DNA of 10,976 nt from a virus (UHGV-0119342), one strand, 5' to 3'. Positions 13-10,896 are shown, numbered from the stretch's first letter. The notes: a model not told the origin generated them from the letters alone. A program made the numbers and translations.

Positions 13-61
13 TTAATCGCGGTTTACATCAGCGCGGCGTTAATCGGGTGATTTTCATCAG
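13..61. repeat. Imperfect tandem direct repeat upstream of the recombinase gene (ttaatcgcggtttacatcag at 13-32; ttaatcgggtgattttcatcag at 40-61)
   Basis: Two copies read directly, both starting with ttaatcg and ending with catcag, 27 bp apart; aatcgcg recurs at 93-99. Function not established. Confidence 0.4.
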
Positions 62-124
62 ACACGTTTAAATACACCATCTAAAGCGATACAATCGCGC
101 TATTAGTTTTTATGGTGGTAAAGA

Positions 125-1528
125 ATGAAACGTGTAATCAGCTACATCAGATTCAGTTCTGAGCGACAAGCCAAAGGCGACTCACTACGCAGACAGTCTA
201 AGATGGTTAATGACTGGCTTAAGGCTCATCCTGAGTACTACCTTGACCAAGATTTATCCTTCCGTGATTTGGGGGTGAGTGGGTTCACTGGTAAGCACTT
301 GAAAGGTGGCTTAGGTGACTTTTTAACCGCTATCGAGAAAGGGCTTGTTAAAGCTGGTGATACGCTCTTGATAGAATCTCTTGACCGTCTGTCACGTCAA
401 GATGTAGACCAAGCAAGTGAGCTACTCAGAAACATTCTTCGCTCTGGTGTAGATGTGGTCACCTTGTCCGATGGTGAACATTACACACGAGAATCTCTTA
501 AAGACCCGTTAGCTCTGATTAAAAGCATTTTGATAATGCAGCGGTCGCATGAGGAAAGTTTGAGGAAGTCTGAGCGTATACAAGCTGCATGGGATGCAAA
601 GAAAGAAGCTGCTAAAGCCGGTATCAAGATTTCTAGGCGTTGTCCTGCATGGCTTAAGCTTAATGATGACCGTAAAAGCTTCTCTGTGATACCTGAGAAG
701 GTAGAAACTGTGAGGAGATGCTTTCAATTACGGTTAGAGGGTAAGTCTATCTGGGAGATTGTCCGGATTCTTAATGATGAAGGTCACCAGACACTTAACC
801 AGTACAAAGCAGGTAAGTTTGGTCAAACCTCAGTGCAAGACCTTCTGAAAAATCGCTCTGTAATTGGTTACTTCACACCTAAAGGCTGTGAGGAGATAGT
901 TGGTTATTTCCCCCCTATCATCCCTGAGACTGATTTCTACAAAGTCCAGCAACTATCATATTCTCGTTATGGAAGAAAGCCTGCTTCAGATAAACCATTG
1001 AGTGTGAATCTTTTCAAAGGTGTTATCCGTTGTTCTGAATGTGGTCATGCTCTGATTATCACAGGCTTTAGCGATACAAGAAGCGGTATATATCGCTGTC
1101 CTTCTCGAAATGAAAACCGTTGCAATGCCAAAGGGCTGTCACGTAAGCAAACCGATGGTACATTACTTGCCCTGCTATCCCGTATAGACCGATTTGATAG
1201 CGATATGACGAATACCATAGACACACTGAAGCTACACCGTGAACACATCTCAAGCAATATTGAAAAGCTGGTACAGCTATCACTTGAAATTGAAGACTTG
1301 TCCGCTATTACCAGCAAACTAAAACAGTTAAAAGGTGAGCTATCACAGGTTGATGCGGATATCGAGAAGGAGACACAACGCCTTAAATCTATTGATGTGG
1401 GGTGTTTGTCTGATTGTGACTTGACTACAAAGGCGGGAAGGATTGAAGCACAACTGATAATCAAAAGTGCTGTTAAAGAGGTCGTTTTGAATACTGCTAA
1501 ACGTCGATGTAACTTTTCACAACGGTAA
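125..1528 (+). CDS. Large serine recombinase (integrase/resolvase family)
   Basis: 467-aa ORF. N-terminal resolvase-type catalytic region (YIRFSSERQ with candidate catalytic Ser; LIESLDRLSRQ), Cys-rich zinc-ribbon-like segment (CSECGH...YRCPSRNENRC), C-terminal coiled-coil-like stretch. GGTGG about 8 nt upstream of ATG. Confidence 0.85.
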   Translation: MKRVISYIRFSSERQAKGDSLRRQSKMVNDWLKAHPEYYLDQDLSFRDLGVSGFTGKHLKGGLGDFLTAIEKGLVKAGDTLLIESLDRLSRQDVDQASELLRNILRSGVDVVTLSDGEHYTRESLKDPLALIKSILIMQRSHEESLRKSERIQAAWDAKKEAAKAGIKISRRCPAWLKLNDDRKSFSVIPEKVETVRRCFQLRLEGKSIWEIVRILNDEGHQTLNQYKAGKFGQTSVQDLLKNRSVIGYFTPKGCEEIVGYFPPIIPETDFYKVQQLSYSRYGRKPASDKPLSVNLFKGVIRCSECGHALIITGFSDTRSGIYRCPSRNENRCNAKGLSRKQTDGTLLALLSRIDRFDSDMTNTIDTLKLHREHISSNIEKLVQLSLEIEDLSAITSKLKQLKGELSQVDADIEKETQRLKSIDVGCLSDCDLTTKAGRIEAQLIIKSAVKEVVLNTAKRRCNFSQR

Positions 1529-1554
1529 GGTAATTGACCTACCAATAACAGAAG

Positions 1555-1613
1555 ACCCCTCGGAGGATGTTACAGAGGCTATACAGTCGCTTTCTGAAGT
1601 CACTGAGAGGGGT
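1555..1613. terminator. Candidate structured terminator region between the convergent recombinase and 254-aa genes
   Basis: Perfect 7-bp inverted repeat acccctc (1555-1561) / gaggggt (1607-1613) with a 45-nt spacer that contains the motifs gttacagagg and agaggctatacag; T-rich flank on the minus-strand side. Long spacer makes terminator function uncertain. Confidence 0.3.
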
Positions 1614-1657
1614 TTAATAGATGTTGATGAGGTTATCATATAGTTGAGATTCTATCG

Positions 1658-2422
1658 TCAGTAGCGCTTGTTAGGATTCACAGAAAACTTCCGTAAAGCA
1701 TTACCCGACTTAAGCACCTTTGAAGCTTGCTCATTAGCTGAGGCTGTGAAGGTGCTCTCACCATTTTTAACGCTAACGCTCTTAGAGCACGTTACACGGG
1801 CTTTTAGCGCTTCATCTGATAACTCACTTGCCGAATAGCTAAAAAGCTCTTTACAGGTCAGCATAGGGCTTCCAAGGCTCGTTGTAGTGTTGCCAGTGTT
1901 CTTTTTACTGGTAGAACCGCCATCATTCGTGGTAGCGACCTTTCCAGTAGCTGCTGAAACATCAGTTTGCCCTACGATTGAACGAAATTCTACACCTTGG
2001 AAGGTCATCTGAATACGAAGACCATTAGCAATGGTATGCTCTTTACTCGCTTTAAACTGAGTAATGATACTATCAGTGATAGATATTCCATCTTTACAAA
2101 CAATAGTGATGATTTGCTTCTGGTCTCGCCATTGTTCAACCGTAGAAATAAAGGTCTCTACAAGTTGCCCCTGTCTGGTTAATAGAACTGAACCCGTCGA
2201 ATCAACCACTACAACACCGCTAATAGAGATGGTCTTAGGTGCTCTCTGAACATTATCAGTGATAGTTTGCCCCGATTGCATAGCCTGAGTTGTCACCATC
2301 ATCGGTGAGTCATAGTCCATCTGTTCAGTAGCTGTTAAGGCAAGAAAAGATTCTACATTATCTCTAAGGTGAAAATAGATACCATCTTTACCTGAGTATC
2401 TAATTTGCTTTGTGTCAAACAT
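1658..2422 (-). CDS. Hypothetical protein, possibly tail-associated (immediately downstream of the tape measure gene)
   Basis: 254-aa ORF, AGGA 9 nt upstream of ATG, Ser/Thr/Gly-rich C-terminal half. Functional guess from position only. Confidence 0.6.
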
Positions 2423-2441
2423 TGTTGTTATTCCTATTCTG

Positions 2442-2487
2442 TTAAGCGTGAGCTACGTGAAATCTAATTTTTGATGTTGGTATCTGC
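2442..2487 (-). promoter_or_regulatory. Conserved promoter-like element, copy A, about 20 nt upstream of the 254-aa gene start
   Basis: Minus-strand reading gcagataccaacatcaaaaattagatttcacgtagctcacgcttaa is about 70 percent identical to a 46-bp element upstream of the tape measure gene; contains a -10-like TAGATT after an A-tract, no canonical -35. Confidence 0.5.
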
Positions 2488-2553
2488 TCAGAAGAAATCA
2501 CGTAGCATTCGACTATTCATAGTTGAATCGTCATACTAGATAAAGATTAATAG

Positions 2554-2571
2554 ATTGCCATGTGTGGCAAT
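2554..2571 (-). terminator. Candidate hairpin 25 nt downstream of the tape measure stop
   Basis: Perfect 7-bp inverted repeat attgcca / tggcaat with 4-nt loop tgtg; AT-rich but not pure U tail on the minus strand. Weak terminator or attenuator. Confidence 0.3.
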
Positions 2572-2595
2572 AAATATTAGTAGTTCTAACATTGT

Positions 2596-4662
2596 TTATT
2601 CCTCTGGGTAAGCGGAGCTAATCAAGGTATCTTCCTGCATACGATTAATATGCGATGTGGTTCTTTCATCAATAACCTTTCCATCAAGTACCGTCTGAGT
2701 TGTGATATTGATTGTCTGAGGCTGAATATTTACTGACGGCTTGATAACCTTTAAATCTTGTGTGAATGTTTCCACTCGACCTTTCAGATTATTTAATGCT
2801 TCAGGTGAAAACTGTGGAACATCTTTTGATTTGCCATGAACCATAGCCCATAAAACAGCAGCTAAAGAGTTCATGTCACCAGTCAATGCTTGGTCTGTGG
2901 GTTCCACCTTTGACCTTACAACTTTGTCAATTGGATTATCTGACTTACTCATCTGACGTTCATAGAACGGTTTAACAATGGAGTTAATCACATCAGTTGC
3001 CATACCGACAATCATTACTTTGGTAATTGCATCAGCTACAGATAATTTTCCTTTACCACCTTCAACACTACCGGAACGTGAATTAATTCTTCCCGCTGCT
3101 GTATTTGCTACATTTCCAAGCATGGAAATAGCCCTAATTAAGTTCCAGATACCACCTACAGCACCAATACCAGACCTTACAGCGACAATACCAGCAAGTC
3201 CCTTTAATGCACTTAACAGGCCATTTGCGATACCATCAGCTACAGCTTTTTGAGTGTCATTTAATTCTCTGTAAGCAAGGGTCACTCTGTCAAAGAATCC
3301 CTGCACTCGGTAGCTAATCGTGGTTAAATCATCAATACCGTTTGACATGCTTTTCATCAGGTCGCCAAAATGTTCACCAAGATTTTTAGATTGACCACCT
3401 AGTGAATTAAGTAAATTAGTCAGTGACCTTGTAAAGTCTGTTAAACCTTCCTGTGAACCGTCGAACATTAAGGCCAGATTATTATTCCATGAATTAGAAA
3501 GGCGGCCTAACTGCGTCTGAGTAGAGTTAATAATCTTTTCCCATCCACCAGCTTTATCAATCATCCTTCCCATTTCAGCGGATACTTTAGGAAGAACATC
3601 TTTAGAAAGAACTTTACCGTTCTTCATAGCTGCATCTAATTGCTCGGTAGTCATCCCAAGGCTTCTGGCAAATAACTGGAAAGCACCTGCCATTCTGTCA
3701 CCTAATTGACCACGTAGCTCTTCAGCCTGAATCTTCCCTTTAGAAGCCATCTGCTCGAAAGCTTTCAGAATCCCGTTAATTTCATCAGTGCTTAAACCCA
3801 TTAGTCGGGATGTACCAATCACATTAGAAAATAAGGATTCTTTCTGGTCTGCATTCATATCACCAGCACCAGCGGAAAACTTAGCAAAGCTACTTAATGT
3901 TTCAATCTGGTCTACACCTGTATTATTAGCAAGATTCTTAACGAAGTCTGTAGCTCGTTTAGCGCCTTCATCGCCTAATACAAATTGTGCCGCTCGTTGT
4001 GATGCTTCTTTTTTCAGACCAATCTCCATAATCTTCCTATAAGCTTCTAAGGCTGTCTGAAAACTATAAATGGCTGTACCTGCTTTGATTGCACTTGTAG
4101 CTAATACATCTAAACCATTTGAAGCATTTTCACTGTGATTGTTTTTGCTGGTGGTCTTATTAAACTTAGAAAGTGTTTCACGTAGATTTTGATTTAACTT
4201 TGCTAACTCACGATTAAAAGCTTCGTTCCCAAGTGTCTTGGATTTACCGCTTAAGCTGTAATACTGGCTTCTAAAATACTTCTCAAGTAGAGGATTAAAG
4301 TCACGAAGCTTGCTCATATTCACGCTATGCGCTGCTGTGATTGCTCTGTTGCCGCTAATTCGTGGTTGCCTTGCTGCTTTAACAGTTTCTTCAACCTGAG
4401 TTTTGAACTTAAAGACCTTCGTAGATTTGGCTCTTTCCTCCAGCTTATTAAAAGTCTGGTTAATCTTCTTTTCCATATTCCCCAAAGAGGCTGTTAAATC
4501 CTTATCCATGCTCTTTGGGTTAACTTTAAATGCTCTATTCAAATTGCGTTCAATTCTTTGTGCTGACTGCAAAGCTGCCTTTTCAACTCTTTGCAGTCCC
4601 TTAATAACGTTTTCATTGAAGCCTAGCTCAACGATAAAACTATCAACTGTGAATTTGCTCAT
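2596..4662 (-). CDS. Phage tail tape measure protein
   Basis: 688-aa ORF. Coiled-coil-like N-terminal region, central segment resembling the conserved tape-measure domain (GKIQAEELRGQLGDRMAGAFQLFARSLGMTTEQLDAAMKNGKV), Gly-rich hydrophobic segments near the C-terminus. AGAGGTG 10 nt upstream of ATG. Confidence 0.8.
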   Translation of the reverse strand: MSKFTVDSFIVELGFNENVIKGLQRVEKAALQSAQRIERNLNRAFKVNPKSMDKDLTASLGNMEKKINQTFNKLEERAKSTKVFKFKTQVEETVKAARQPRISGNRAITAAHSVNMSKLRDFNPLLEKYFRSQYYSLSGKSKTLGNEAFNRELAKLNQNLRETLSKFNKTTSKNNHSENASNGLDVLATSAIKAGTAIYSFQTALEAYRKIMEIGLKKEASQRAAQFVLGDEGAKRATDFVKNLANNTGVDQIETLSSFAKFSAGAGDMNADQKESLFSNVIGTSRLMGLSTDEINGILKAFEQMASKGKIQAEELRGQLGDRMAGAFQLFARSLGMTTEQLDAAMKNGKVLSKDVLPKVSAEMGRMIDKAGGWEKIINSTQTQLGRLSNSWNNNLALMFDGSQEGLTDFTRSLTNLLNSLGGQSKNLGEHFGDLMKSMSNGIDDLTTISYRVQGFFDRVTLAYRELNDTQKAVADGIANGLLSALKGLAGIVAVRSGIGAVGGIWNLIRAISMLGNVANTAAGRINSRSGSVEGGKGKLSVADAITKVMIVGMATDVINSIVKPFYERQMSKSDNPIDKVVRSKVEPTDQALTGDMNSLAAVLWAMVHGKSKDVPQFSPEALNNLKGRVETFTQDLKVIKPSVNIQPQTINITTQTVLDGKVIDERTTSHINRMQEDTLISSAYPEE

Positions 4663-4679
4663 TCATATTTTTCACCTCT

Positions 4680-4725
4680 TTAAGCGTGTTGTACGTAAAT
4701 TCTATTTTTCAGTGTGGGTATTAGC
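4680..4725 (-). promoter_or_regulatory. Conserved promoter-like element, copy B, about 18 nt upstream of the tape measure start
   Basis: Minus-strand reading gctaatacccacactgaaaaatagaatttacgtacaacacgcttaa; -10-like TAGAAT after an A-tract; both copies end in CACGCTTAA just before the RBS. Confidence 0.5.
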
Positions 4726-4779
4726 TTTACAGATTTCATGAGGATAATTCTTATCCGAATCATCACGTAGCACACATAC

Positions 4780-4821
4780 AAAAAAAGGGAGAGCTACCGA
4801 TGTCACTCGATAATCTCTCCC
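4780..4821 (-). terminator. Rho-independent terminator (minus strand) between the 71-aa gene and the tape measure gene
   Basis: Perfect 7-bp GC-rich stem GGGAGAG / CTCTCCC (4787-4793 / 4815-4821), 21-nt loop, followed on the minus strand by a run of 7 U (4780-4786). Confidence 0.55.
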
Positions 4822-4871
4822 CGTACTATAGATTCGATAGAACCTATCTCATATACCCAACCAATTCTTTT

Positions 4872-5087
4872 TTAATGTCTGACAAGATAATGTAATTCCG
4901 TTTCACCTATGATTTGAGCATCAGAAGGAATACGGTCAATACACCACTTTGGAATCTTGCGTGTTTTTGGTTTGTGTGAGGTGATAACTTGACGTTTGTT
5001 TTTAATTCTTAAGGCTGGCTTAGTTTGTAACTTTAAGTTTTCACAAGCCGACTTAATAGTTTCATAACGCTGTTGCAAATCAATCAT
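4872..5087 (-). CDS. Hypothetical small basic protein
   Basis: 71-aa ORF, GAGGT 6 nt upstream of ATG, starts 23 nt after the stop of the upstream 234-aa gene; Lys/Arg-rich C-terminal half. Confidence 0.6.
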   Translation of the reverse strand: MIDLQQRYETIKSACENLKLQTKPALRIKNKRQVITSHKPKTRKIPKWCIDRIPSDAQIIGETELHYLVRH

Positions 5088-5110: not shown

Positions 5111-5815
5111 TCAAACAGCCTTGCTAAATTCTCGTGGAACACTCAGAAAATCATTGAAGCTGATAATCTGTGCCAACTCTTGACGGTACTCCTTAGCCAG
5201 CGCTTGATGGTCACTAATCAGCTTAGCCAGTCTTGATTTCAGCAAATTAATCTCATTTTCTCTTGCTTTCATCAGTTTCTCTTTGGCAATTTCTTCAAGC
5301 TCAGCTTGTGATTTATCAGCAACAATTAGAGACAATCGATGTGGTGCTCTGACAGCTCTTTCCGTACGAATAACCCTTTGACCTTCTGGTAAATCTGCAA
5401 TCACTTTACCAATCTCTACAGGGTCATACCCCCAACCGTCACGGTCTAGTCGAGAGAAATAAGCATAAGAATTGGTTTGAAGCTCCATTAAAATAGCCAT
5501 TTCGTCAATTTCGTCTTCAAGCTTGGACTGAATTTTCTCGTAAACACTTCTCATTGCTTCTTGAGAGTCTTTAATAGCTTGGAAATATCGGCGTTGTAGC
5601 TTCAACTTCAAATCAAGTTCACAACTTTCGTTCATAGAAAAATCAATTTCAACTCTTGGAATCTCGAGTGGTTCTGGTGGAATATATGGACCTTTATTTA
5701 CTTCGTGTGATTCCCGCCAAGCTCTATCAAAAGATTCACGCAAAGTTAATTCGTGAATATCAAGTGCACTTGGTCGGCTTTCAATAATCATTTCATTTTC
5801 ATCACGGATAGCCAT
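5111..5815 (-). CDS. Hypothetical acidic protein with coiled-coil-like C-terminal half
   Basis: 234-aa ORF, AGAGGAAAGG 5 nt upstream of ATG; heptad-like helical C-terminal region. No recognisable catalytic motif. Confidence 0.65.
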   Translation of the reverse strand: MAIRDENEMIIESRPSALDIHELTLRESFDRAWRESHEVNKGPYIPPEPLEIPRVEIDFSMNESCELDLKLKLQRRYFQAIKDSQEAMRSVYEKIQSKLEDEIDEMAILMELQTNSYAYFSRLDRDGWGYDPVEIGKVIADLPEGQRVIRTERAVRAPHRLSLIVADKSQAELEEIAKEKLMKARENEINLLKSRLAKLISDHQALAKEYRQELAQIISFNDFLSVPREFSKAV

Positions 5816-6184: not shown

Positions 6185-6462
6185 CAGCCTTTTAACAGAT
6201 TGGTAACATCAATTTCTATTTACTGTGTTGCCTACCCAGCAACCAACAAATAAGCCAAGCAACGTCCAAGCAATTATTAAGCCCATTAGTGAACCCTCAC
6301 AGAATCCGTAACCAAAATATTGTCGCCGTACAGGATTGTCACAGCACCTTTCAAAAATTGCTCTGGGGAAATACTGTATTTGTTCGTTTGCTCGATAACC
6401 AATCTTTTCATGTCGCTGTCTGCAATTGGTAGCATCATTCGAGGCTCGTTAAACTCCACCGA

Positions 6463-6609
6463 CTAAATAAAGTCAGAGATGTTTTCTGCATTATCAGCCA
6501 TCAGCTTTAGTAATTTATCAAAATTAATTGCGATACCTGCATCACTGAAAGCCTGAATCATCAGAGCGGTGTCGTTATCAACGAAAATCTGTAATTCGTA
6601 ATTGCTCAT
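6463..6609 (-). CDS. Small acidic hypothetical protein (48 aa, not in the supplied ORF track)
   Basis: Hand translation MSNYELQIFVDNDTALMIQAFSDAGIAINFDKLLKLMADNAENISDFI; AAGGAG 9 nt upstream of ATG. Confidence 0.4.
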   Translation of the reverse strand: MSNYELQIFVDNDTALMIQAFSDAGIAINFDKLLKLMADNAENISDFI

Positions 6610-6764
6610 TTTTAAAATCTCCTTTTTACCAGACCTCCTCAATCGCTCTGTAACGAGCTAAACAGTCTTTTTCAGGGGTAGCCTGTACAGTGGTATTACC
6701 CACCCTAAAATAAGATAGTTTTTTGCGTTAGAATGCGATTGAGAGCGTCTGAGAAGCTGTTTTT

Positions 6765-7052
6765 CTAATTTCTCTTAAAGTCTCGGACTTGCATAAGATT
6801 TTTTGGTCTGGTATCGGCTCTGTTACCATTTCGATGGATAATTTGCTTATTGGATTGATAGCCATGATAAAGGAACCAGACAACATATTTCACGTAGAAA
6901 GTATATCGGCCTATATTAAATGTTTTGTTGCCGTAGTCGTCGGTATTTATCGTGACTGACTCTCCATCAGACCAGCACAGGGAATCACTGGATTCATCAT
7001 AGATAAGGTGTTCTGTAAAATATCGTCTAACATCTTCATGCCAAGGTTTCAT
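6765..7052 (-). CDS. Truncated HNH-like protein, paralogue of the N-terminal part of the 9540-10064 endonuclease
   Basis: 95-aa ORF, GAGGAGG 4 nt upstream of ATG. Shares KPWHEDVRRY with KAWPEEVIRY and VVWFLYHG...IIHRNGNRADTRPKNL with VIFYLYHG...IDHIDGDPLNNAISNL, but ends before the final HNH Asn and has no AP2 domain. Confidence 0.65.
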   Translation of the reverse strand: MKPWHEDVRRYFTEHLIYDESSDSLCWSDGESVTINTDDYGNKTFNIGRYTFYVKYVVWFLYHGYQSNKQIIHRNGNRADTRPKNLMQVRDFKRN

Positions 7053-7264
7053 AAAACCTCCTCACCCCAATAACCTAATTCAATCTTGTGACGCTCAAAC
7101 CATTCTGGCTTGACTGCTGCTTTCAGTACTTCATTTGGGCCAATGGCTTTAATGAAAATATCTTTTGAGTTATGGATGTCACCGAATCCGTTTCCTTTAA
7201 TCAGGAGGTCGGAGATGTAGCGAATCATTTTATCTGTGTGGTATTCAAAGGTAACGCATAGCAT
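7049..7264 (-). CDS. Hypothetical protein
   Basis: 71-aa ORF, GGAGG 4 nt upstream of ATG; start overlaps the stop of the upstream gene by 1 nt, and its stop overlaps the start of the 95-aa gene by 4 nt. Confidence 0.55.
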   Translation of the reverse strand: MLCVTFEYHTDKMIRYISDLLIKGNGFGDIHNSKDIFIKAIGPNEVLKAAVKPEWFERHKIELGYWGEEVL

Positions 7265-7542
7265 TAAACCTCCAGAGACAGCTTGTGAATTTTAAGACTC
7301 AATAGACGGGCAATATCAATCTTAAAGCCGTTAAGCGCCTTCAAAGTAGCTAAAGCGTCCTGACTAATTCGGATGTGTTTACGACCTTTAGAGACTGGAT
7401 ATTTCAGTAAATCCGACTCAGTAACCTCTTTAGCAATTGCAAGCTGCATAACAGTTTGATGAGGGAGGTTAGTTGTCTGTTTAATTCGGGTAAGCTCGTG
7501 AAAGGCTTCTTCTGAAATACGGGTCAAAGTGTGTTTCTTCAT
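7264..7542 (-). CDS. Ribbon-helix-helix (CopG/Arc-like) DNA-binding protein, putative regulator
   Basis: 92-aa ORF, AGAGGA 8 nt upstream of ATG. N-terminus MKKHTLTRISEEAFHELTRIKQTTNLPHQTVMQLAIAKEV fits the RHH strand-helix-helix pattern; a second similar segment (HIRISQDALATLKAL...) may be a tandem repeat. Confidence 0.55.
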   Translation of the reverse strand: MKKHTLTRISEEAFHELTRIKQTTNLPHQTVMQLAIAKEVTESDLLKYPVSKGRKHIRISQDALATLKALNGFKIDIARLLSLKIHKLSLEV

Positions 7543-8100
7543 TTAAAATTCCTCTGTAACTAAATACGGGTCAAACTCAAAGTCTGGTTGCTCGTTTTCC
7601 ATTGGCTCAATATTTCCAACGGCAATATGATGCTCAACAACACCAATTAACTTTGCGCACATTACAGCAAGCAATGCACAATATTTATCGCTTGGTAATT
7701 CGTAGCTAAGTCTGGTTGCTTGTCGCTGAAGATGATTTGTCACGGTGGCTGAGTTAATTTCATCAAGGTTCTTTAGGAGATAAAATAGCTTCTTGTTGTA
7801 TTTCGGGTGACCTTCACCTCTACAGAATCCAATGAAAATATCATCAAGCTTACTTGGTAATTGTTCGTAGCTGTCAAAGTTAGCCAGATAATTTTTGATG
7901 CTGTTCTTTGTTGTTTTGCGTACTGACATATAACGACTCCTCGGTGTAATTGCCCGAATTACTTCGTCAATGCCTTTGCGCTCTGCTCTGGTGAACTTGG
8001 GTACTTCGTGACTGGTGGGGGAGTTTGTGTAAGCGTAGGAGTTGTGCTTGTTGCGTTCTCTTGATGCCTGAAGCATCGCTCTAAATTCTCTGTCGTTCAT
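7543..8100 (-). CDS. Hypothetical protein, first gene of the leftward operon
   Basis: 185-aa ORF, GAGGG 11 nt upstream of ATG; stop codon directly abuts the next start (TAAATG). Acidic/aromatic C-terminal tail (DFEFDPYLVTEEF). No recognisable domain. Confidence 0.6.
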   Translation of the reverse strand: MNDREFRAMLQASRERNKHNSYAYTNSPTSHEVPKFTRAERKGIDEVIRAITPRSRYMSVRKTTKNSIKNYLANFDSYEQLPSKLDDIFIGFCRGEGHPKYNKKLFYLLKNLDEINSATVTNHLQRQATRLSYELPSDKYCALLAVMCAKLIGVVEHHIAVGNIEPMENEQPDFEFDPYLVTEEF

Positions 8101-8151
8101 TCATGTTCTGACCCTCATAAGATGTTATTATTCTGTTAACTTATATATACA

Positions 8152-8180
8152 ATCTTAGCAGTTTCAAAGACTAATGTCAA
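8152..8180 (-). promoter_or_regulatory. Candidate sigma70-type promoter for the leftward operon
   Basis: Minus-strand -35 TTGACA (8175-8180), 17-bp spacer, -10 TAAGAT (8152-8157); back-to-back with the plus-strand promoter. Confidence 0.3.
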
Positions 8181-8187
8181 GCATTTT

Positions 8188-8217
8188 TTAACATTTCATT
8201 AACATCTGTGGTATAAT
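8188..8217 (+). promoter_or_regulatory. Candidate strong sigma70-type promoter with extended -10
   Basis: -35 TTAACA (8188-8193), 18-bp spacer, TGg + TATAAT (8209-8217); points toward the small ORF at 8348. Confidence 0.5.
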
Positions 8218-8347
8218 GGTTTTATGAGAGAGGGAAAATATAAAGGCGTGGCTATGAGGTTTATTCGATAGGGGTTGGTACAAGCCCAACTAACCGAATC
8301 AACTATGTATTTGGTCACATGGTATTGCATTGCACACAGGAAATTTA

Positions 8348-8524
8348 ATGGTAAATCTCCCTCCTGAGCTGGGGTCACCTGATGTATGGGCTGGTGGAGG
8401 TGTTGGGCTGATTGCAGGCCTGCTACTTCGCTATGTCCTCGTCAGAGTGCTTGTTGTCTTTAAACTGTTCGGTCGTACATGGACGCTTGACCTTAAGGAT
8501 AATGACCACACAGACCCCCGTTAA
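8348..8524 (+). CDS. Small single-pass membrane protein (58 aa from the ATG; the ORF track begins at a TTG at 8330)
   Basis: AGGA 6 nt upstream of the ATG at 8348; hydrophobic segment WAGGGVGLIAGLLLRYVLVRVLVV; locally GC-richer than its surroundings. Confidence 0.45.
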   Translation: MVNLPPELGSPDVWAGGGVGLIAGLLLRYVLVRVLVVFKLFGRTWTLDLKDNDHTDPR

Positions 8525-8538
8525 ACTCCCTCCAAAAC

Positions 8539-8570
8539 CCCCTGTACGAGATAGTATAGGGGTGTCTTTA
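8539..8570 (+). terminator. Candidate terminator after the small membrane-protein ORF
   Basis: Imperfect 8-bp stem cccctgta / tatagggg (one mismatch), 8-nt loop, followed by tgtcttta. Confidence 0.3.
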
Positions 8571-9453
8571 GCATTTTGTGCTATCTATTAAAAAATAGCT
8601 TGACAGAACAGGAAAGCTGTATCTATCAAGTATTCACCTCTCTGACAGTAATTTCTAAAAGTTCTTATTTTTCAATAAGTTGTAATTAGCCAATATATAA
8701 GGCTGTCCAGTACCTTCACAGAAAAACTTCAGAAGCCTTCTTAATCAATCCACTAAGCGAGAGAGAGCGATAACCCCAGAGAGGGAAGCTCCCTTCTTAA
8801 AAACCTTCTTGACAATCTTTACAGGCCTTGTTCAAGGTAATCGCAATAGTTTTTCTTCCCTCGGTTTCCCGTGTTCCTCGGTTTGCCTATTGAGGTTTGA
8901 AAGACCTCTGTAACTTCCCTCTTAGACAGGGAAGAATAATATTGGTGACACAAGCGAAGCGCCCCTCTAAAAAGATTTTTTAGCTATTTTGTTTAAAAGC
9001 ACATCAAACGATACATTTTATTGATTTAGGTCAAAGACAAAAGCATTGACAAAATGGTAAGATTGTTCACATGACCTTACTTAACAGATTCTTAAGAGCT
9101 TTGAAGCGGCCTATTTAACAAGGTCACTACCTCTGGTCTTATCGTTCCCTCTCTTCTTGGTAGTTCTGTTAAGTATCTTTTCAGGTATCTCTTACAGTCA
9201 CTGTTAAGATGATACTCTCCCTTCGGGTTATATCGTTACTTTCTCTCCCGTTAAACACTCCTTCCTAACTATCTACATAATCACTTCTAAGAATCTTACA
9301 AGGTAATATCCAGACCTCTTATAGCTGACCTGATACAGAAACATTACAGGCATACTCTCTAGGTTCTGTGTAGTTCCCTTGGTGGGAATAGATGCTCCTA
9401 CAATAAGAGCATCATTAATCTATATAGTCCTCTTCCGAGAACTTAATAGTTTT

Positions 9454-9539: not shown

Positions 9540-10064
9540 ATGGTGACTAGGTATACCAAGGCATGGCCTGAAGAAGTTATAAGATACATCAATGAAAATA
9601 TTACAGCAGATTTTGAATCTGGAACATTATTTAGAAATGGTGTAAAAATCGAGGGTTCACTTGTAAATCCTAAACCAAGACAATATCTGGCTTTTGGTTG
9701 TCGGATTAATGGTAAGTTCAGAATACTTAAGGTGCATCAGGTTATTTTCTATCTATATCATGGTAAACAAGCTAAACTATGGATTGACCATATAGATGGT
9801 GACCCGCTAAATAATGCTATTAGCAATCTTCGCGAGGTTACCAAAGAGCAGAATCAGGCAAACATGATACCCAGAAAGAAAACAAAATCAGGTTACAAGG
9901 GAGTACACCCAAGAGTGGATAACAAGGGGTTCTGGGCTACAATACGCTGTAATGGAAAATCTCATTATCTGGGTCAGTTTAATACAGCAGAAGAAGCTGC
10001 AAAAGCCTATGATGCTGCATCACTGGAATTGCATGGTAAATATGGACACAGGAATTTTAGCTGA
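9540..10064 (+). CDS. Free-standing homing endonuclease, NUMOD4-like N-terminus + HNH nuclease + AP2 DNA-binding domain
   Basis: 174-aa ORF, AAGGA 5 nt upstream of ATG. HNH motif VHQVIFYLYHG...IDHIDGDPLNNAISNLREVTKEQNQAN; AP2-like C-terminus YKGVHPRVDNKGFWATIRCNGKSHYLGQFNTAEEAAKAYDAAS. Confidence 0.85.
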   Translation: MVTRYTKAWPEEVIRYINENITADFESGTLFRNGVKIEGSLVNPKPRQYLAFGCRINGKFRILKVHQVIFYLYHGKQAKLWIDHIDGDPLNNAISNLREVTKEQNQANMIPRKKTKSGYKGVHPRVDNKGFWATIRCNGKSHYLGQFNTAEEAAKAYDAASLELHGKYGHRNFS

Positions 10065-10074
10065 TAGTTAATAA

Positions 10075-10104
10075 AGACCTGACATAAACTTGTCGATAGG
10101 TCTG
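10075..10104 (+). terminator. Candidate stem-loop downstream of the HNH endonuclease gene
   Basis: agacctgaca ... tgtcgataggtct: 10 paired positions with a 3-nt bulge, AT-rich tail (gattaaagtttat); weak as an intrinsic terminator. Confidence 0.3.
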
Positions 10105-10896
10105 ATTAAAGTTTATACAGTGATTTTTCATCTTCTAATTTTTTTATAAAAATCGTAGTACCCCCTCTACATTCCCCTTCACCGATAATCTTAAAAAATA
10201 TCTACACTCAATTGATGGCTGTTAAGTACCCCAGATTCACGATATAGCACCCCCTTTGCAAAAGCAGTTAAAATATCTATAACCAATTATTGACTTTCTT
10301 CATAGCATCTGTTTACCTCCACCTCAAAAAAACCTTCATCACATTTCACAGCATCTATCAAGAAGATTTAACCTATCAATAGCTGTAACATTTTATAGTC
10401 CTGTGAAGTCCTCCCCAGTTTTCTCTGTAACAGACACAAACTTCTGTGACCTTATGTGTCAATGACTTATAAGACATGCTCTCAAGGTGCTGTATAGCCT
10501 CTTATCTTCCAATACATAAAACTCTTATAAATCAGTACTGATATGTATACAGTTCGTTTTTAACATAATAGCTGTTTTACGCACTAAGAAGCATCTACGT
10601 AGATTCTGTATAGAGATTAAGATGTCTCTAAGTGATTTTTTAAGAGGAGATACGAAGGAACTATAACCATCACTTCATAACTTTCACGTAGGTAGCTATT
10701 AAGTAGGTTGATAGTCACTTTGAGGGAATATTGATAGTGACCAACTGCATAGACACCGTTATATAGCCCTGTATATAGCACTATATGTAGTGTCTGGAGA
10801 GGAACGACTAACACGATACAGTTTACCCTGAAAAGAGACTTCACAGATTCTCTATATATTTCAATAAGTTATGATAAAAAGAGACTATATCAATAC

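Follow-up and report, generated by a model that had tools for sequence, protein, structure and literature searches.

Gene content and boundaries of the island

The viral sequence UHGV-0119342, a single stretch of 10,976 nucleotides (nt) that was analyzed at its full length and is called the window below, contains a gene for a large serine recombinase and, convergent on it, a gene for a tube initiator (TI), which lies downstream of a gene for a tape measure protein (TMP) (Table 1). The source of the window is an Escherichia coli chromosome: the sequence matches NZ_CP098217.1 throughout except for one 5-bp gap. Comparison of the locus with the intact yecE gene of strain Sakai revealed an island of 11,875 bp inserted within yecE, the Sakai gene aligning to both insertion flanks with a 5-bp overlap. 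The first 55 nt of the window are the 5′ portion of yecE, and the island extends approximately 950 bp past the window end, where a single gene encodes a non-structural protein of 277 amino acids (aa). In the following, L001 denotes the island in NZ_CP098217.1, L006 phage Felix O1, L022 phage SP22, and L010 an element of the type described by Barth et al.; L008 and L009 are the sister islands at wrbA–ymdF and tonB–yciI.

Table 1. Features of the window and cargo of related islands. Positions are those of the window unless another record is named.
Feature	Position	Strand	Matches and remarks
attL	33–78		yecE half-site, crossover dinucleotide TT (54–55), and island P′ arm (56–78)
Large serine recombinase (integrase)	125–1528	+	Pfam Resolvase 2.3e-21, Recombinase 2.3e-14, Zn_ribbon_recom 1.3e-7; phrog_95 integrase 2.3e-77
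TI, Dit-like baseplate hub protein, 254 aa	1658–2422	−	PF21821 3.5e-17; phrog_3721 1.9e-125; PDB 9ndy_A 3.9e-101
Regulatory cassette upstream of TI gene	2438–2506	−	Inverted arms GCTACGTGA / TCACGTAGC, −10-like TAGATT, then CACGCTTAACAGA; direct-repeat family D2
TMP, 688 aa	2596–4662	−	PF20155 5.5e-20; phrog_4036 5.2e-98; PDB 9ndy_F (Bas63 gp17) 8.6e-76
Second copy of cassette, upstream of TMP gene	4678–4771	−	Present in L001 and L009; missing before the TMP gene of L008
Intrinsic terminator ending the 234-aa/71-aa unit	4780–4823	−	Hairpin (dG −22.7 kcal/mol; z −4.95) with a U7 tail; kept in sister islands
71-aa basic protein	4872–5087	−	15 K/R versus 7 D/E (counted from the translation)
234-aa mostly helical protein	5111–5815	−	Island-specific family; dN/dS 0.26
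Pseudogene, internal stop (RefSeq annotation)	6286–6642	−	107-aa gene, intact (324 nt) in L008, L009, and L021
Short HNH endonuclease, 95 aa	6765–7052	−	PF13392 1.8e-8
Operon for 185-, 92-, and 71-aa proteins (leftward)	7049–8100	−	Conserved; dN/dS 0.09–0.22
Conserved, mostly noncoding region	8095–9375		74–93% identity across five islands; holds the promoters, a small ORF, and segment A
Two sigma-70-like promoters, facing apart	8152–8217		Strong; scores of 10/12 (minus strand) and 11/12 (plus strand), each with an extended TG
58-aa small membrane ORF	8348–8524	+	MVNLPPELGSPDVWAGGGVGLIAGLLLRYVLVRVLVVF...; one hydrophobic segment; kept in 5 of 5 islands; dN/dS 0.05–0.37
Segment A	9115–9167		87% identity over 54 nt to phage SP22, E 2e-6
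HNH-AP2 homing-type endonuclease	9540–10064	+	PF13392 3.3e-14, AP2 3.8e-6, phrog_99 6.5e-45; variable cargo
Segment C-B	10100–10295		Noncoding element of ~190 nt, collinear with a portion of the ORF-free gap in Felixounavirus
Cargo of L020	L020 12000–17000		FRG-domain gene cluster with ISLad2
Cargo of L021	L021 10748–13023		Dam-type methylase and small resolvase
Cargo of L008	L008 20378–20926		Resolvase alone
Cargo of L027	L027 14025–15826		IS100
Cargo of the window-type island			HNH-AP2 and 277-aa protein

All three Pfam domains of the recombinase score above their cut-offs, which assigns the protein to the large serine recombinases, and its N-terminal sequence YIRFSSERQ, read by eye from the translation, contains the catalytic serine motif. 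The dinucleotide TT is common to attB, attL, and attR and represents the 2-bp crossover of a large serine integrase. The arms of the reconstructed attP, GGTGTATTTAGAC.../...GTTTAAATACACC, are inverted repeats that form an imperfect palindrome from the two island ends, and the sequence across the junction reads CCTTGCTAATC-TT-CATCAGACACG. A palindromic attP is the usual form for large serine integrases. We conclude that the island was put into yecE at the TT crossover by a large serine recombinase. The island is an integrative element with its own integrase, attL, and attR, and is far below the size of a phage. An 11,980-bp metagenome scaffold considered as an excised island was rejected, its tonB/yciI flanks identifying it as an integrated copy. 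The island is not SpLE2 of O157 Sakai either: the latter is CP4-44-like and located near sbcB, and yecE of Sakai is intact.

The 5-bp gap lies in the recombinase gene. Compared with NZ_CP098217.1, the window has lost GTAAA after approximately position 1508 (L001 16509–16513), between GTAA repeats, and the deletion replaces the last 46 residues of the recombinase with 5 others, so that the protein has 467 aa here versus 507 aa in NZ_CP098217.1. The recombinase is not intact at full length in the window copy, whereas the relatives are intact; the deletion was found in none of the eight closest RefSeq copies, as judged from the alignment spans. Either the window copy has possibly lost the ability to excise, or the missing 5 bp could reflect a difference in assembly.

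The first-pass annotation of the window, made from the sequence alone, had noted a TMP gene beside a serine recombinase with no tail module around it, and had read the arrangement as a mosaic prophage end or a satellite-like element with selected structural genes. The genes lie where it placed them. A prophage end, in which the TMP gene would terminate a tail module extending beyond the window, would agree with the use of yecE as an integration site by Stx phages (PMC8112680) and with some prophage calls in IMG/VR, 24–55 kb in size, that hold the island near one end. However, inspection of the wider context, which the annotation had proposed as a check, located attL and attR and refuted this explanation. 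Only the ~950 bp mentioned above separate the window end from the right boundary; yecD/yecE lie directly to the left of the island and yecN and cmoA to its right, with no head or tail module on either side. The presence of core genes directly outside the island means that it is not the end of a larger prophage, and we regard this possibility as extremely improbable.

Two tail proteins related to those of Felixounavirus

The Dit_like domain (PF21821) of the 254-aa protein scored 63.1 bits against a cut-off of 24.2, and a PDB sequence search aligned its residues 4–253 to the "Tube initiator protein (gp018)" of the Felixounavirus Bas63 (9ndy_A), which identifies the protein as a TI. It shares 65% aa identity with ORF68 of Felix O1 and with the protein of phage vB_EcoM_D4 (D4 below), and the DNA identity of its gene to that of Felix O1-like phages is approximately 74%. 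The 688-aa protein scored 72.3 bits for PF20155 (cut-off 41) and is homologous over its full length to a virion TMP. A tblastn search against 50,697 phage records gave full-length matches to it with approximately 29–30% identity, and the top-listed records were Felix O1 relatives of ~82–90 kb (Salmonella, Escherichia, Shigella, and Citrobacter phages). In Felix O1, two chaperone genes are followed by the genes for TMP (ORF67, 742 aa) and ORF68 (265 aa). The TMP–ORF68 pair and its order are retained in the island, where unrelated genes for 71- and 234-aa proteins lie upstream and no chaperone homolog is present. Thus, the homology searches confirmed the 688-aa protein as a TMP and identified the 254-aa protein as a Dit-like TI, with the 71- and 234-aa proteins unmatched. 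The annotated lack of a recognizable tail gene set is correct in that a full module is absent, but the 254-aa gene encodes the direct structural partner of TMP.

The island TMP is 54 residues shorter than the phage TMP and shares 29% identity overall with its counterpart in phage D4. The identity reaches 75% in residues 1–40, 55–60% in residues 281–360, and 40–75% in the last 48 residues (ending ...SS.YPEE), and is 12–30% in most of the remaining 40-residue blocks. In Bas63, the last 25 residues of gp17 touch the hub and the puncturing device, and the gp18 hexamer, which combines a tube-like fold with a C-terminal extension of ~100 aa running through the baseplate, adapts the threefold hub to the sixfold tube (PMC12609058; Sci Adv 2025 eadx0790). 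The distribution of identity indicates that the TMP regions predicted to dock onto phage components are retained and that the remainder has diverged.

TMP and TI are the sole virion proteins of the island; in Bas63, the pair is the core for starting and measuring the tail tube. Genes for capsid, portal, terminase, tube, or sheath were not found in the Pfam, PHROG, and homology scans, i.e., the island does not encode a self-sufficient particle. Among the other open reading frames (ORFs) of the island, none except those of the HNH endonucleases encodes a Felix O1-like protein.

Conservation of the island family and exchange with phages

A megablast search using the TI–TMP–71-aa–234-aa module as the query was positive for 480 of the 5,426 complete E. 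coli genomes, with matches at up to four places per genome and identities from approximately 77% to 100%. One low-coverage match was inspected and proved to be an island of the same type whose structural module has diverged. Relatives also occur in E. albertii, Shigella, Salmonella, E. fergusonii, and Citrobacter. Islands of the same ~12-kb design occupy yecE, wrbA–ymdF, and tonB–yciI, and the recombinases at these three sites share 29–37% mutual identity. Five annotated relatives have the same order of genes: recombinase, TI, TMP, ~70-aa, ~234-aa, 107-aa, (HNH), 60–71-aa, 92-aa, and 185-aa proteins, followed by a long noncoding region. The pairwise ratios of nonsynonymous to synonymous substitution rates (dN/dS) for the recombinase, TI, TMP, 71-, 234-, 185-, and 92-aa genes were 0.09–0.28, indicating purifying selection. 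For TMP and TI, the ratio was 0.10–0.25, even at a synonymous divergence (dS) of ~2 between copies.

In the wrbA and tonB islands, the TI gene matches coliphage D4 with 96% identity over its first 509–518 nt, and shorter patches in the center and start of the TMP gene show 78–81% identity. The TIs of these two islands are nearer to that of Felix O1 (78–79% aa identity, dS 0.62–0.67) than to that of L001 (74–75%, dS ~2). The identity of the TI patch and the TI distances indicate that the islands and living Felixounaviruses recombine.

These results bear on the possibility that a temperate phage with a Felix O1-type tail has decayed to the present island, deletions having left only the integrase, two functionless tail genes, and some early genes. 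The frameshifted recombinase and the pseudogene in the window copy would fit such a remnant, as would the insertion sequence (IS) elements in relatives and the fact that a function is known for few of the genes. However, the same gene set and size (~11–12 kb without cargo) recur at at least three att sites, each time with a different recombinase. No further head or tail gene was found in the relatives examined, which argues strongly against random prophage decay. In addition, the selection on TMP and TI is not that of functionless genes, the nearest phage relatives are virulent Ounavirinae and not temperate phages, and the 96%-identical patch reflects recent exchange with living phages. A decayed remnant is therefore unlikely, and the remnant explanations remain improbable even when taken together.

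Noncoding DNA shared with Felixounavirus

The right half of the window includes approximately 1.4 kb almost without ORFs. Its noncoding stretches, the conserved region in Table 1 and that from position 10107 to the window end, show 74–99% identity across the family. A sensitive blastn search of the right half against all phage records yielded only eight matches, all to segment A. They came exclusively from Felix O1-like phages, namely E. coli and Shigella phages of 83–98 kb that include SP22 (Felixounavirus), and covered 47–61 nt of unannotated DNA (E 2e-6 to 6e-6). In the phage, segment A is part of an ORF-free gap of 1.6 kb that separates convergent gene blocks (Felix O1, 12,306–13,927; SP22, 1601–3243). 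The alignment of segment C-B from seven sequences (two phages and five islands) contains the invariant blocks TTTTTATAAAA, AAAATATC, and CCCCTTTGCA.

In the phage, segments A and C-B flank an array of [CT]TAACA[AG] repeats, which occur 27 times in the gap, with 17 in a single 500-nt interval versus at most three per interval elsewhere in the genome. The repeats are on the same strand, the gap is flanked by AT-rich blocks, and the array has an iteron-like appearance. A small cluster of the same motif is found beside segment A in the island. RNAalifold detected no conserved structure in the C-B element, an Rfam search of the island and the phage gap gave nothing near threshold, and a search for iterons or tandem repeats in the noncoding DNA of the island gave nothing convincing. 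We found no paper on the function of the Felixounavirus ORF-free gap. Segments A and C-B are read as borrowed cis-acting sites, possibly origin-like or packaging-related. The homology of TI and TMP, the 96% patch, and the noncoding segments all point to Felixounavirus only, which provides a specific link to a candidate helper.

Regulatory cassettes and the genes upstream of TMP

The TMP gene is preceded by a cassette of approximately 70–95 nt, GCTACGTGA-N38..65-T(C/T)ACGTA..CACGCTTAA, which recurs before the TI gene as well as in sister islands. The cassette consists of inverted arms (GCTACGTGA...T(C/T)ACGTAGC), a −10-like hexamer, and then CACGCTTAACAGA, and is kept before TI in three islands and before TMP in two. 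The arms upstream of TI pair as RNA (z −3.5). The cassette is a presumed promoter or operator. The terminator and promoter-like element that the first-pass annotation had placed before TMP are thus both present as sequence, the former as a hairpin followed by U7 and the latter as the cassette, with the functions presumed.

The annotation had also described the 71-aa basic and 234-aa coiled-coil proteins upstream as lacking a frameshift chaperone signature. In agreement with this, neither showed similarity to the Felix O1 tail chaperones or to proteins of Barth-type satellites, and the 234-aa protein is mostly helical. The 71-aa basic protein gave no Pfam, PHROG, or PADLOC match; its gene occupies the same position in the sister islands, with 90% and 46% identity and dN/dS of 0.10–0.24. 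The 234-aa family comprises just 40 clusters in 5.8 billion proteins, all from E. coli, Shigella, or Citrobacter, and a PDB profile search returned coiled-coil noise only.

Proposed role of the island

We propose that the island depends on a Felixounavirus helper and that its TMP and TI enter the tails built by the phage, and we assign this proposal a probability of approximately 0.55. The partner is read as a virulent Felix O1-like myovirus (Felixounavirus, Ounavirinae), and the island would be an E. coli analogue of PLE, the Vibrio cholerae island that has ICP1 as its partner. Infection by a Felixounavirus would lead to excision of the island, which would be copied and/or packaged through its phage-like cis elements with the use of phage proteins. 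The island TMP and TI would enter phage-made baseplates and bring tail initiation under the control of the island. The outcome would be either tails for island-carrying particles or spoiled phage tails, and either would lower the phage yield. The region adjoining attR would act as a swap-in cargo slot.

A more far-reaching version of the proposal is tentative. These islands could be the first satellites that bring their own tail-initiation core: the island TMP and TI would replace those of the phage, the cis elements would have been copied from the phage, and phage tail assembly would be sabotaged. The island would also specify the tail length of the transducing particles and perhaps their route of DNA ejection.

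Several points weigh against a helper-dependent island. No replication initiator, terminase subunit, capsid-size factor, excisionase, or tail chaperone was recognized in the Pfam, PHROG, and PADLOC scans and the chaperone comparison, and an exact search for the attP junction in IMG/VR and JGI metagenomes gave zero matches. The AlphaFold2 models of the 234-aa protein (two long helices, residues 60–114 and 170–224; pLDDT, the model confidence score, 56.7) and the 185-aa protein (pLDDT 52.0) are too poor for a fold search. For these reasons, i.e., the lack of a recognized initiator, terminase, or excisionase, the poor models, and the failure to find the attP junction, helper dependence and the reason for carrying TMP and TI are matters that we infer, and the same applies to excision, replication, packaging, and transfer of the island. 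The assignment of the phage gap as an origin or packaging site is a guess, and no tested fact gives a reason for a satellite to encode TMP and TI itself. The cassette motifs CACGTAGC and CACGCTTAA were not found in Felix O1 intergenic DNA, so that helper-driven expression is not supported. Finally, the window copy itself may be immobile because of its truncated recombinase and one pseudogene.

The main rival is a non-transferring anti-phage defense island that spreads by other routes, in which TMP and TI are dominant-negative decoys that retain the surfaces for docking to the Felixounavirus hub and tube and, like tail-assembly blockers, give dead-end or wrong-length tails. Such decoys would agree with the conservation of the docking regions alone between the island and phage TMPs, with the placement of TI and TMP each under its own cassette, apart from the rest of the island, and with the fact that no packaging or replication genes were found. 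Interference with tail assembly is established on mobile elements (PMC11364771, PMC10884400), and the attR-side cargo includes defense-like genes (an FRG-domain protein and a Dam methylase). On the other hand, the PADLOC models match neither TMP, TI, nor the small proteins, and defense alone leaves the conserved phage-like noncoding segments unexplained. The known inhibitors Tai and Tab are small proteins recognizing phage tail components and not homologs of tail proteins. Defense and satellite roles are also compatible, since PLE does both. We consider pure defense a rather unlikely explanation, and a satellite-like element with selected structural genes, the other part of the first-pass reading, agrees with all of the findings and is the best supported.

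If the proposal of a helper-dependent island is correct, approximately 1 in 11 sequenced E. coli strains, together with strains of Shigella, Salmonella, and E. albertii, would harbor a PLE-like element that parasitizes phages of the Felix O1 type. Such phages are in wide use for the typing of Salmonella and are therapeutic candidates; the islands could limit their efficacy and move DNA between strains. Satellite biology would be widened from capsid remodeling to the tail, and the islands would constitute a natural experiment on tail length and initiation. In addition, the shared noncoding blocks point toward a role of the repeat-rich ORF-free gap of Felixounavirus. The system is tractable: Bas63 can be obtained from the public BASEL collection, and the structure of its virion is known at near-atomic resolution.

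Other genes and variable cargo

The protein sequence of the 95-aa HNH endonuclease is 100% identical in three islands whose neighboring genes differ by 5–40%, and strain AH04 has an unrelated 128-aa gene at its position. The identity across diverged islands suggests recent spread or very strong constraint, and the protein may be a domesticated homing endonuclease. The leftward operon encoding the 185-, 92-, and 71-aa proteins is presumed to be a regulation or replication module. Its proteins gave no family match except for a weak DndE-like match of the 92-aa protein (E 0.066). The 92-aa protein (7264–7542, minus strand) is internally repetitive, its halves …LTRISEEAFHEL… and …HIRISQDALATL… resembling each other, and is a possible DNA-binding regulator of the tandem ribbon-helix-helix type. 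The 185-aa family has 1,088 clusters in Escherichia, Shigella, and Salmonella and just 22 matches among 1.84 billion representatives. The distant relatives of the 185-aa protein contain no significant Pfam domain. A tblastn search with this protein against all phage records gave no match, so that nothing points to a phage counter-nuclease with a domain taken from it.

The two sigma-70-like promoters are overlapped by a 20-nt inverted repeat (8120–8139/8188–8207), and the arrangement looks like a switch region. The 58-aa ORF is divergent from the 185-aa operon and is annotated in L009 and L020 but not in NZ_CP098217.1.

The HNH-AP2 endonuclease is 46% identical to an HNH endonuclease of Felix O1. 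Its gene sits between the phage-like segments A and C-B and is missing in L008, L009, and L021; this absence from sister islands fits a homing-type insertion into a phage-like element. The region adjoining attR is a variable cargo slot among the islands. The gene for the 277-aa protein (L001 26001–26834, minus strand) adjoins attR in the yecE islands L001 and L020 and is missing in the yecE island L021, the wrbA island, and the tonB island. From the translation, the N-terminal region of the 277-aa protein is hydrophobic, and its C-terminal part is long, charged, repetitive, and coiled-coil-like; no family match was obtained. PADLOC gave no defense-system match except for a homing-endonuclease model and a weak LmuB match on the coiled coil of the recombinase. 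In L024 (Logan ERR4992830 contig, 11,654 bp), which ends just past the TMP gene and before TI and the recombinase, a tyrosine integrase lies beside cargo genes, suggesting that some family members may use another integration module.

Comparison with known systems

The marker genes of PICI, cf-PICI, P4-like elements, and PLE (AlpA, Pri-Rep, and Ppi/Rpp; capsid, protease, and terminase; Sid, Psu, Delta, and the alpha primase; RepA_N and TcaP) were all absent from the main predicted proteins in the Pfam, PHROG, and PADLOC searches, and for this reason we do not file the island under any of these families. Full-text literature searches found no report linking satellites with Felixounavirus or Ounavirinae.

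PLE is the closest mechanistic model. Like PLE, the island is a small chromosomal island with a large serine recombinase as its integrase and a virulent myovirus as its partner, ICP1 in the case of PLE and a putative one in the case of the island. Both show mosaic exchange with phage, HNH or homing-endonuclease-related genes, and cis elements tied to phage–satellite conflict. In contrast, no homologs of PLE proteins were detected in the island, and neither a RepA_N initiator nor a TcaP-like capsid remodeler was recognized. Excision triggered by a phage protein, replication, and transduction are behaviors of PLE and are predicted for the island. To our knowledge, no TMP or tube initiator has been reported for PLE.

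With regard to the tail itself, gp17 and gp18 of Bas63 are direct homologs of the island TMP and TI, with the same gene order and with the hub-contacting C-terminus of TMP kept. The island pair differs in lacking chaperone, tube, sheath, hub, and wedge genes and in having its own island-specific cassettes. Tai and Tab resemble the island in being encoded on mobile elements and in their likely action on the tail assembly of an infecting phage, but these small inhibitors showed no sequence match to the island proteins.

Barth, Nguyen, and Seed reported 224 putative E. coli satellites (e.g., CP028759 1027648–1052961), mostly with tyrosine integrases at tRNA genes and some with a serine recombinase, and proposed virulent phages as helpers (NAR Genom Bioinform 2023, lqad076). 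Elements of this type and the present island are both att-flanked E. coli islands of ~13 kb without the remaining tail genes. One end of L010 encodes a 65-aa ORF, a 633-aa TMP-like protein, a Dit_like "baseplate" protein, and a convergent integrase, which is the layout of the island. A small resolvase lies near the far end in the Barth-type example as well as in the island relatives L008, L021, and L023. Despite this likeness, L010 and the island share no detectable DNA or protein similarity, so that the island is not a member of the Barth family. Barth-type elements carry genes for a major capsid protein, a decoration protein, and RepA_N, none of which the island has. The TI of L010 is 60–63% identical to that of virulent coliphages of ~131–152 kb, whereas the island TI is ~65% identical to that of Felix O1-like phages of ~86 kb. 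Strain A15 has one Barth-type element and one yecE island at different loci.

The comparison of L010 with the island indicates that two unrelated island families each carry the TMP and TI pair of one virulent-myovirus lineage. If the more far-reaching version of the proposal given above is correct, tail-core-carrying satellites of virulent myoviruses would represent a general and common strategy in E. coli. The kind of element is known, but the family to which the island belongs is new: its layout was anticipated by Barth et al., and the family is not homologous to theirs.

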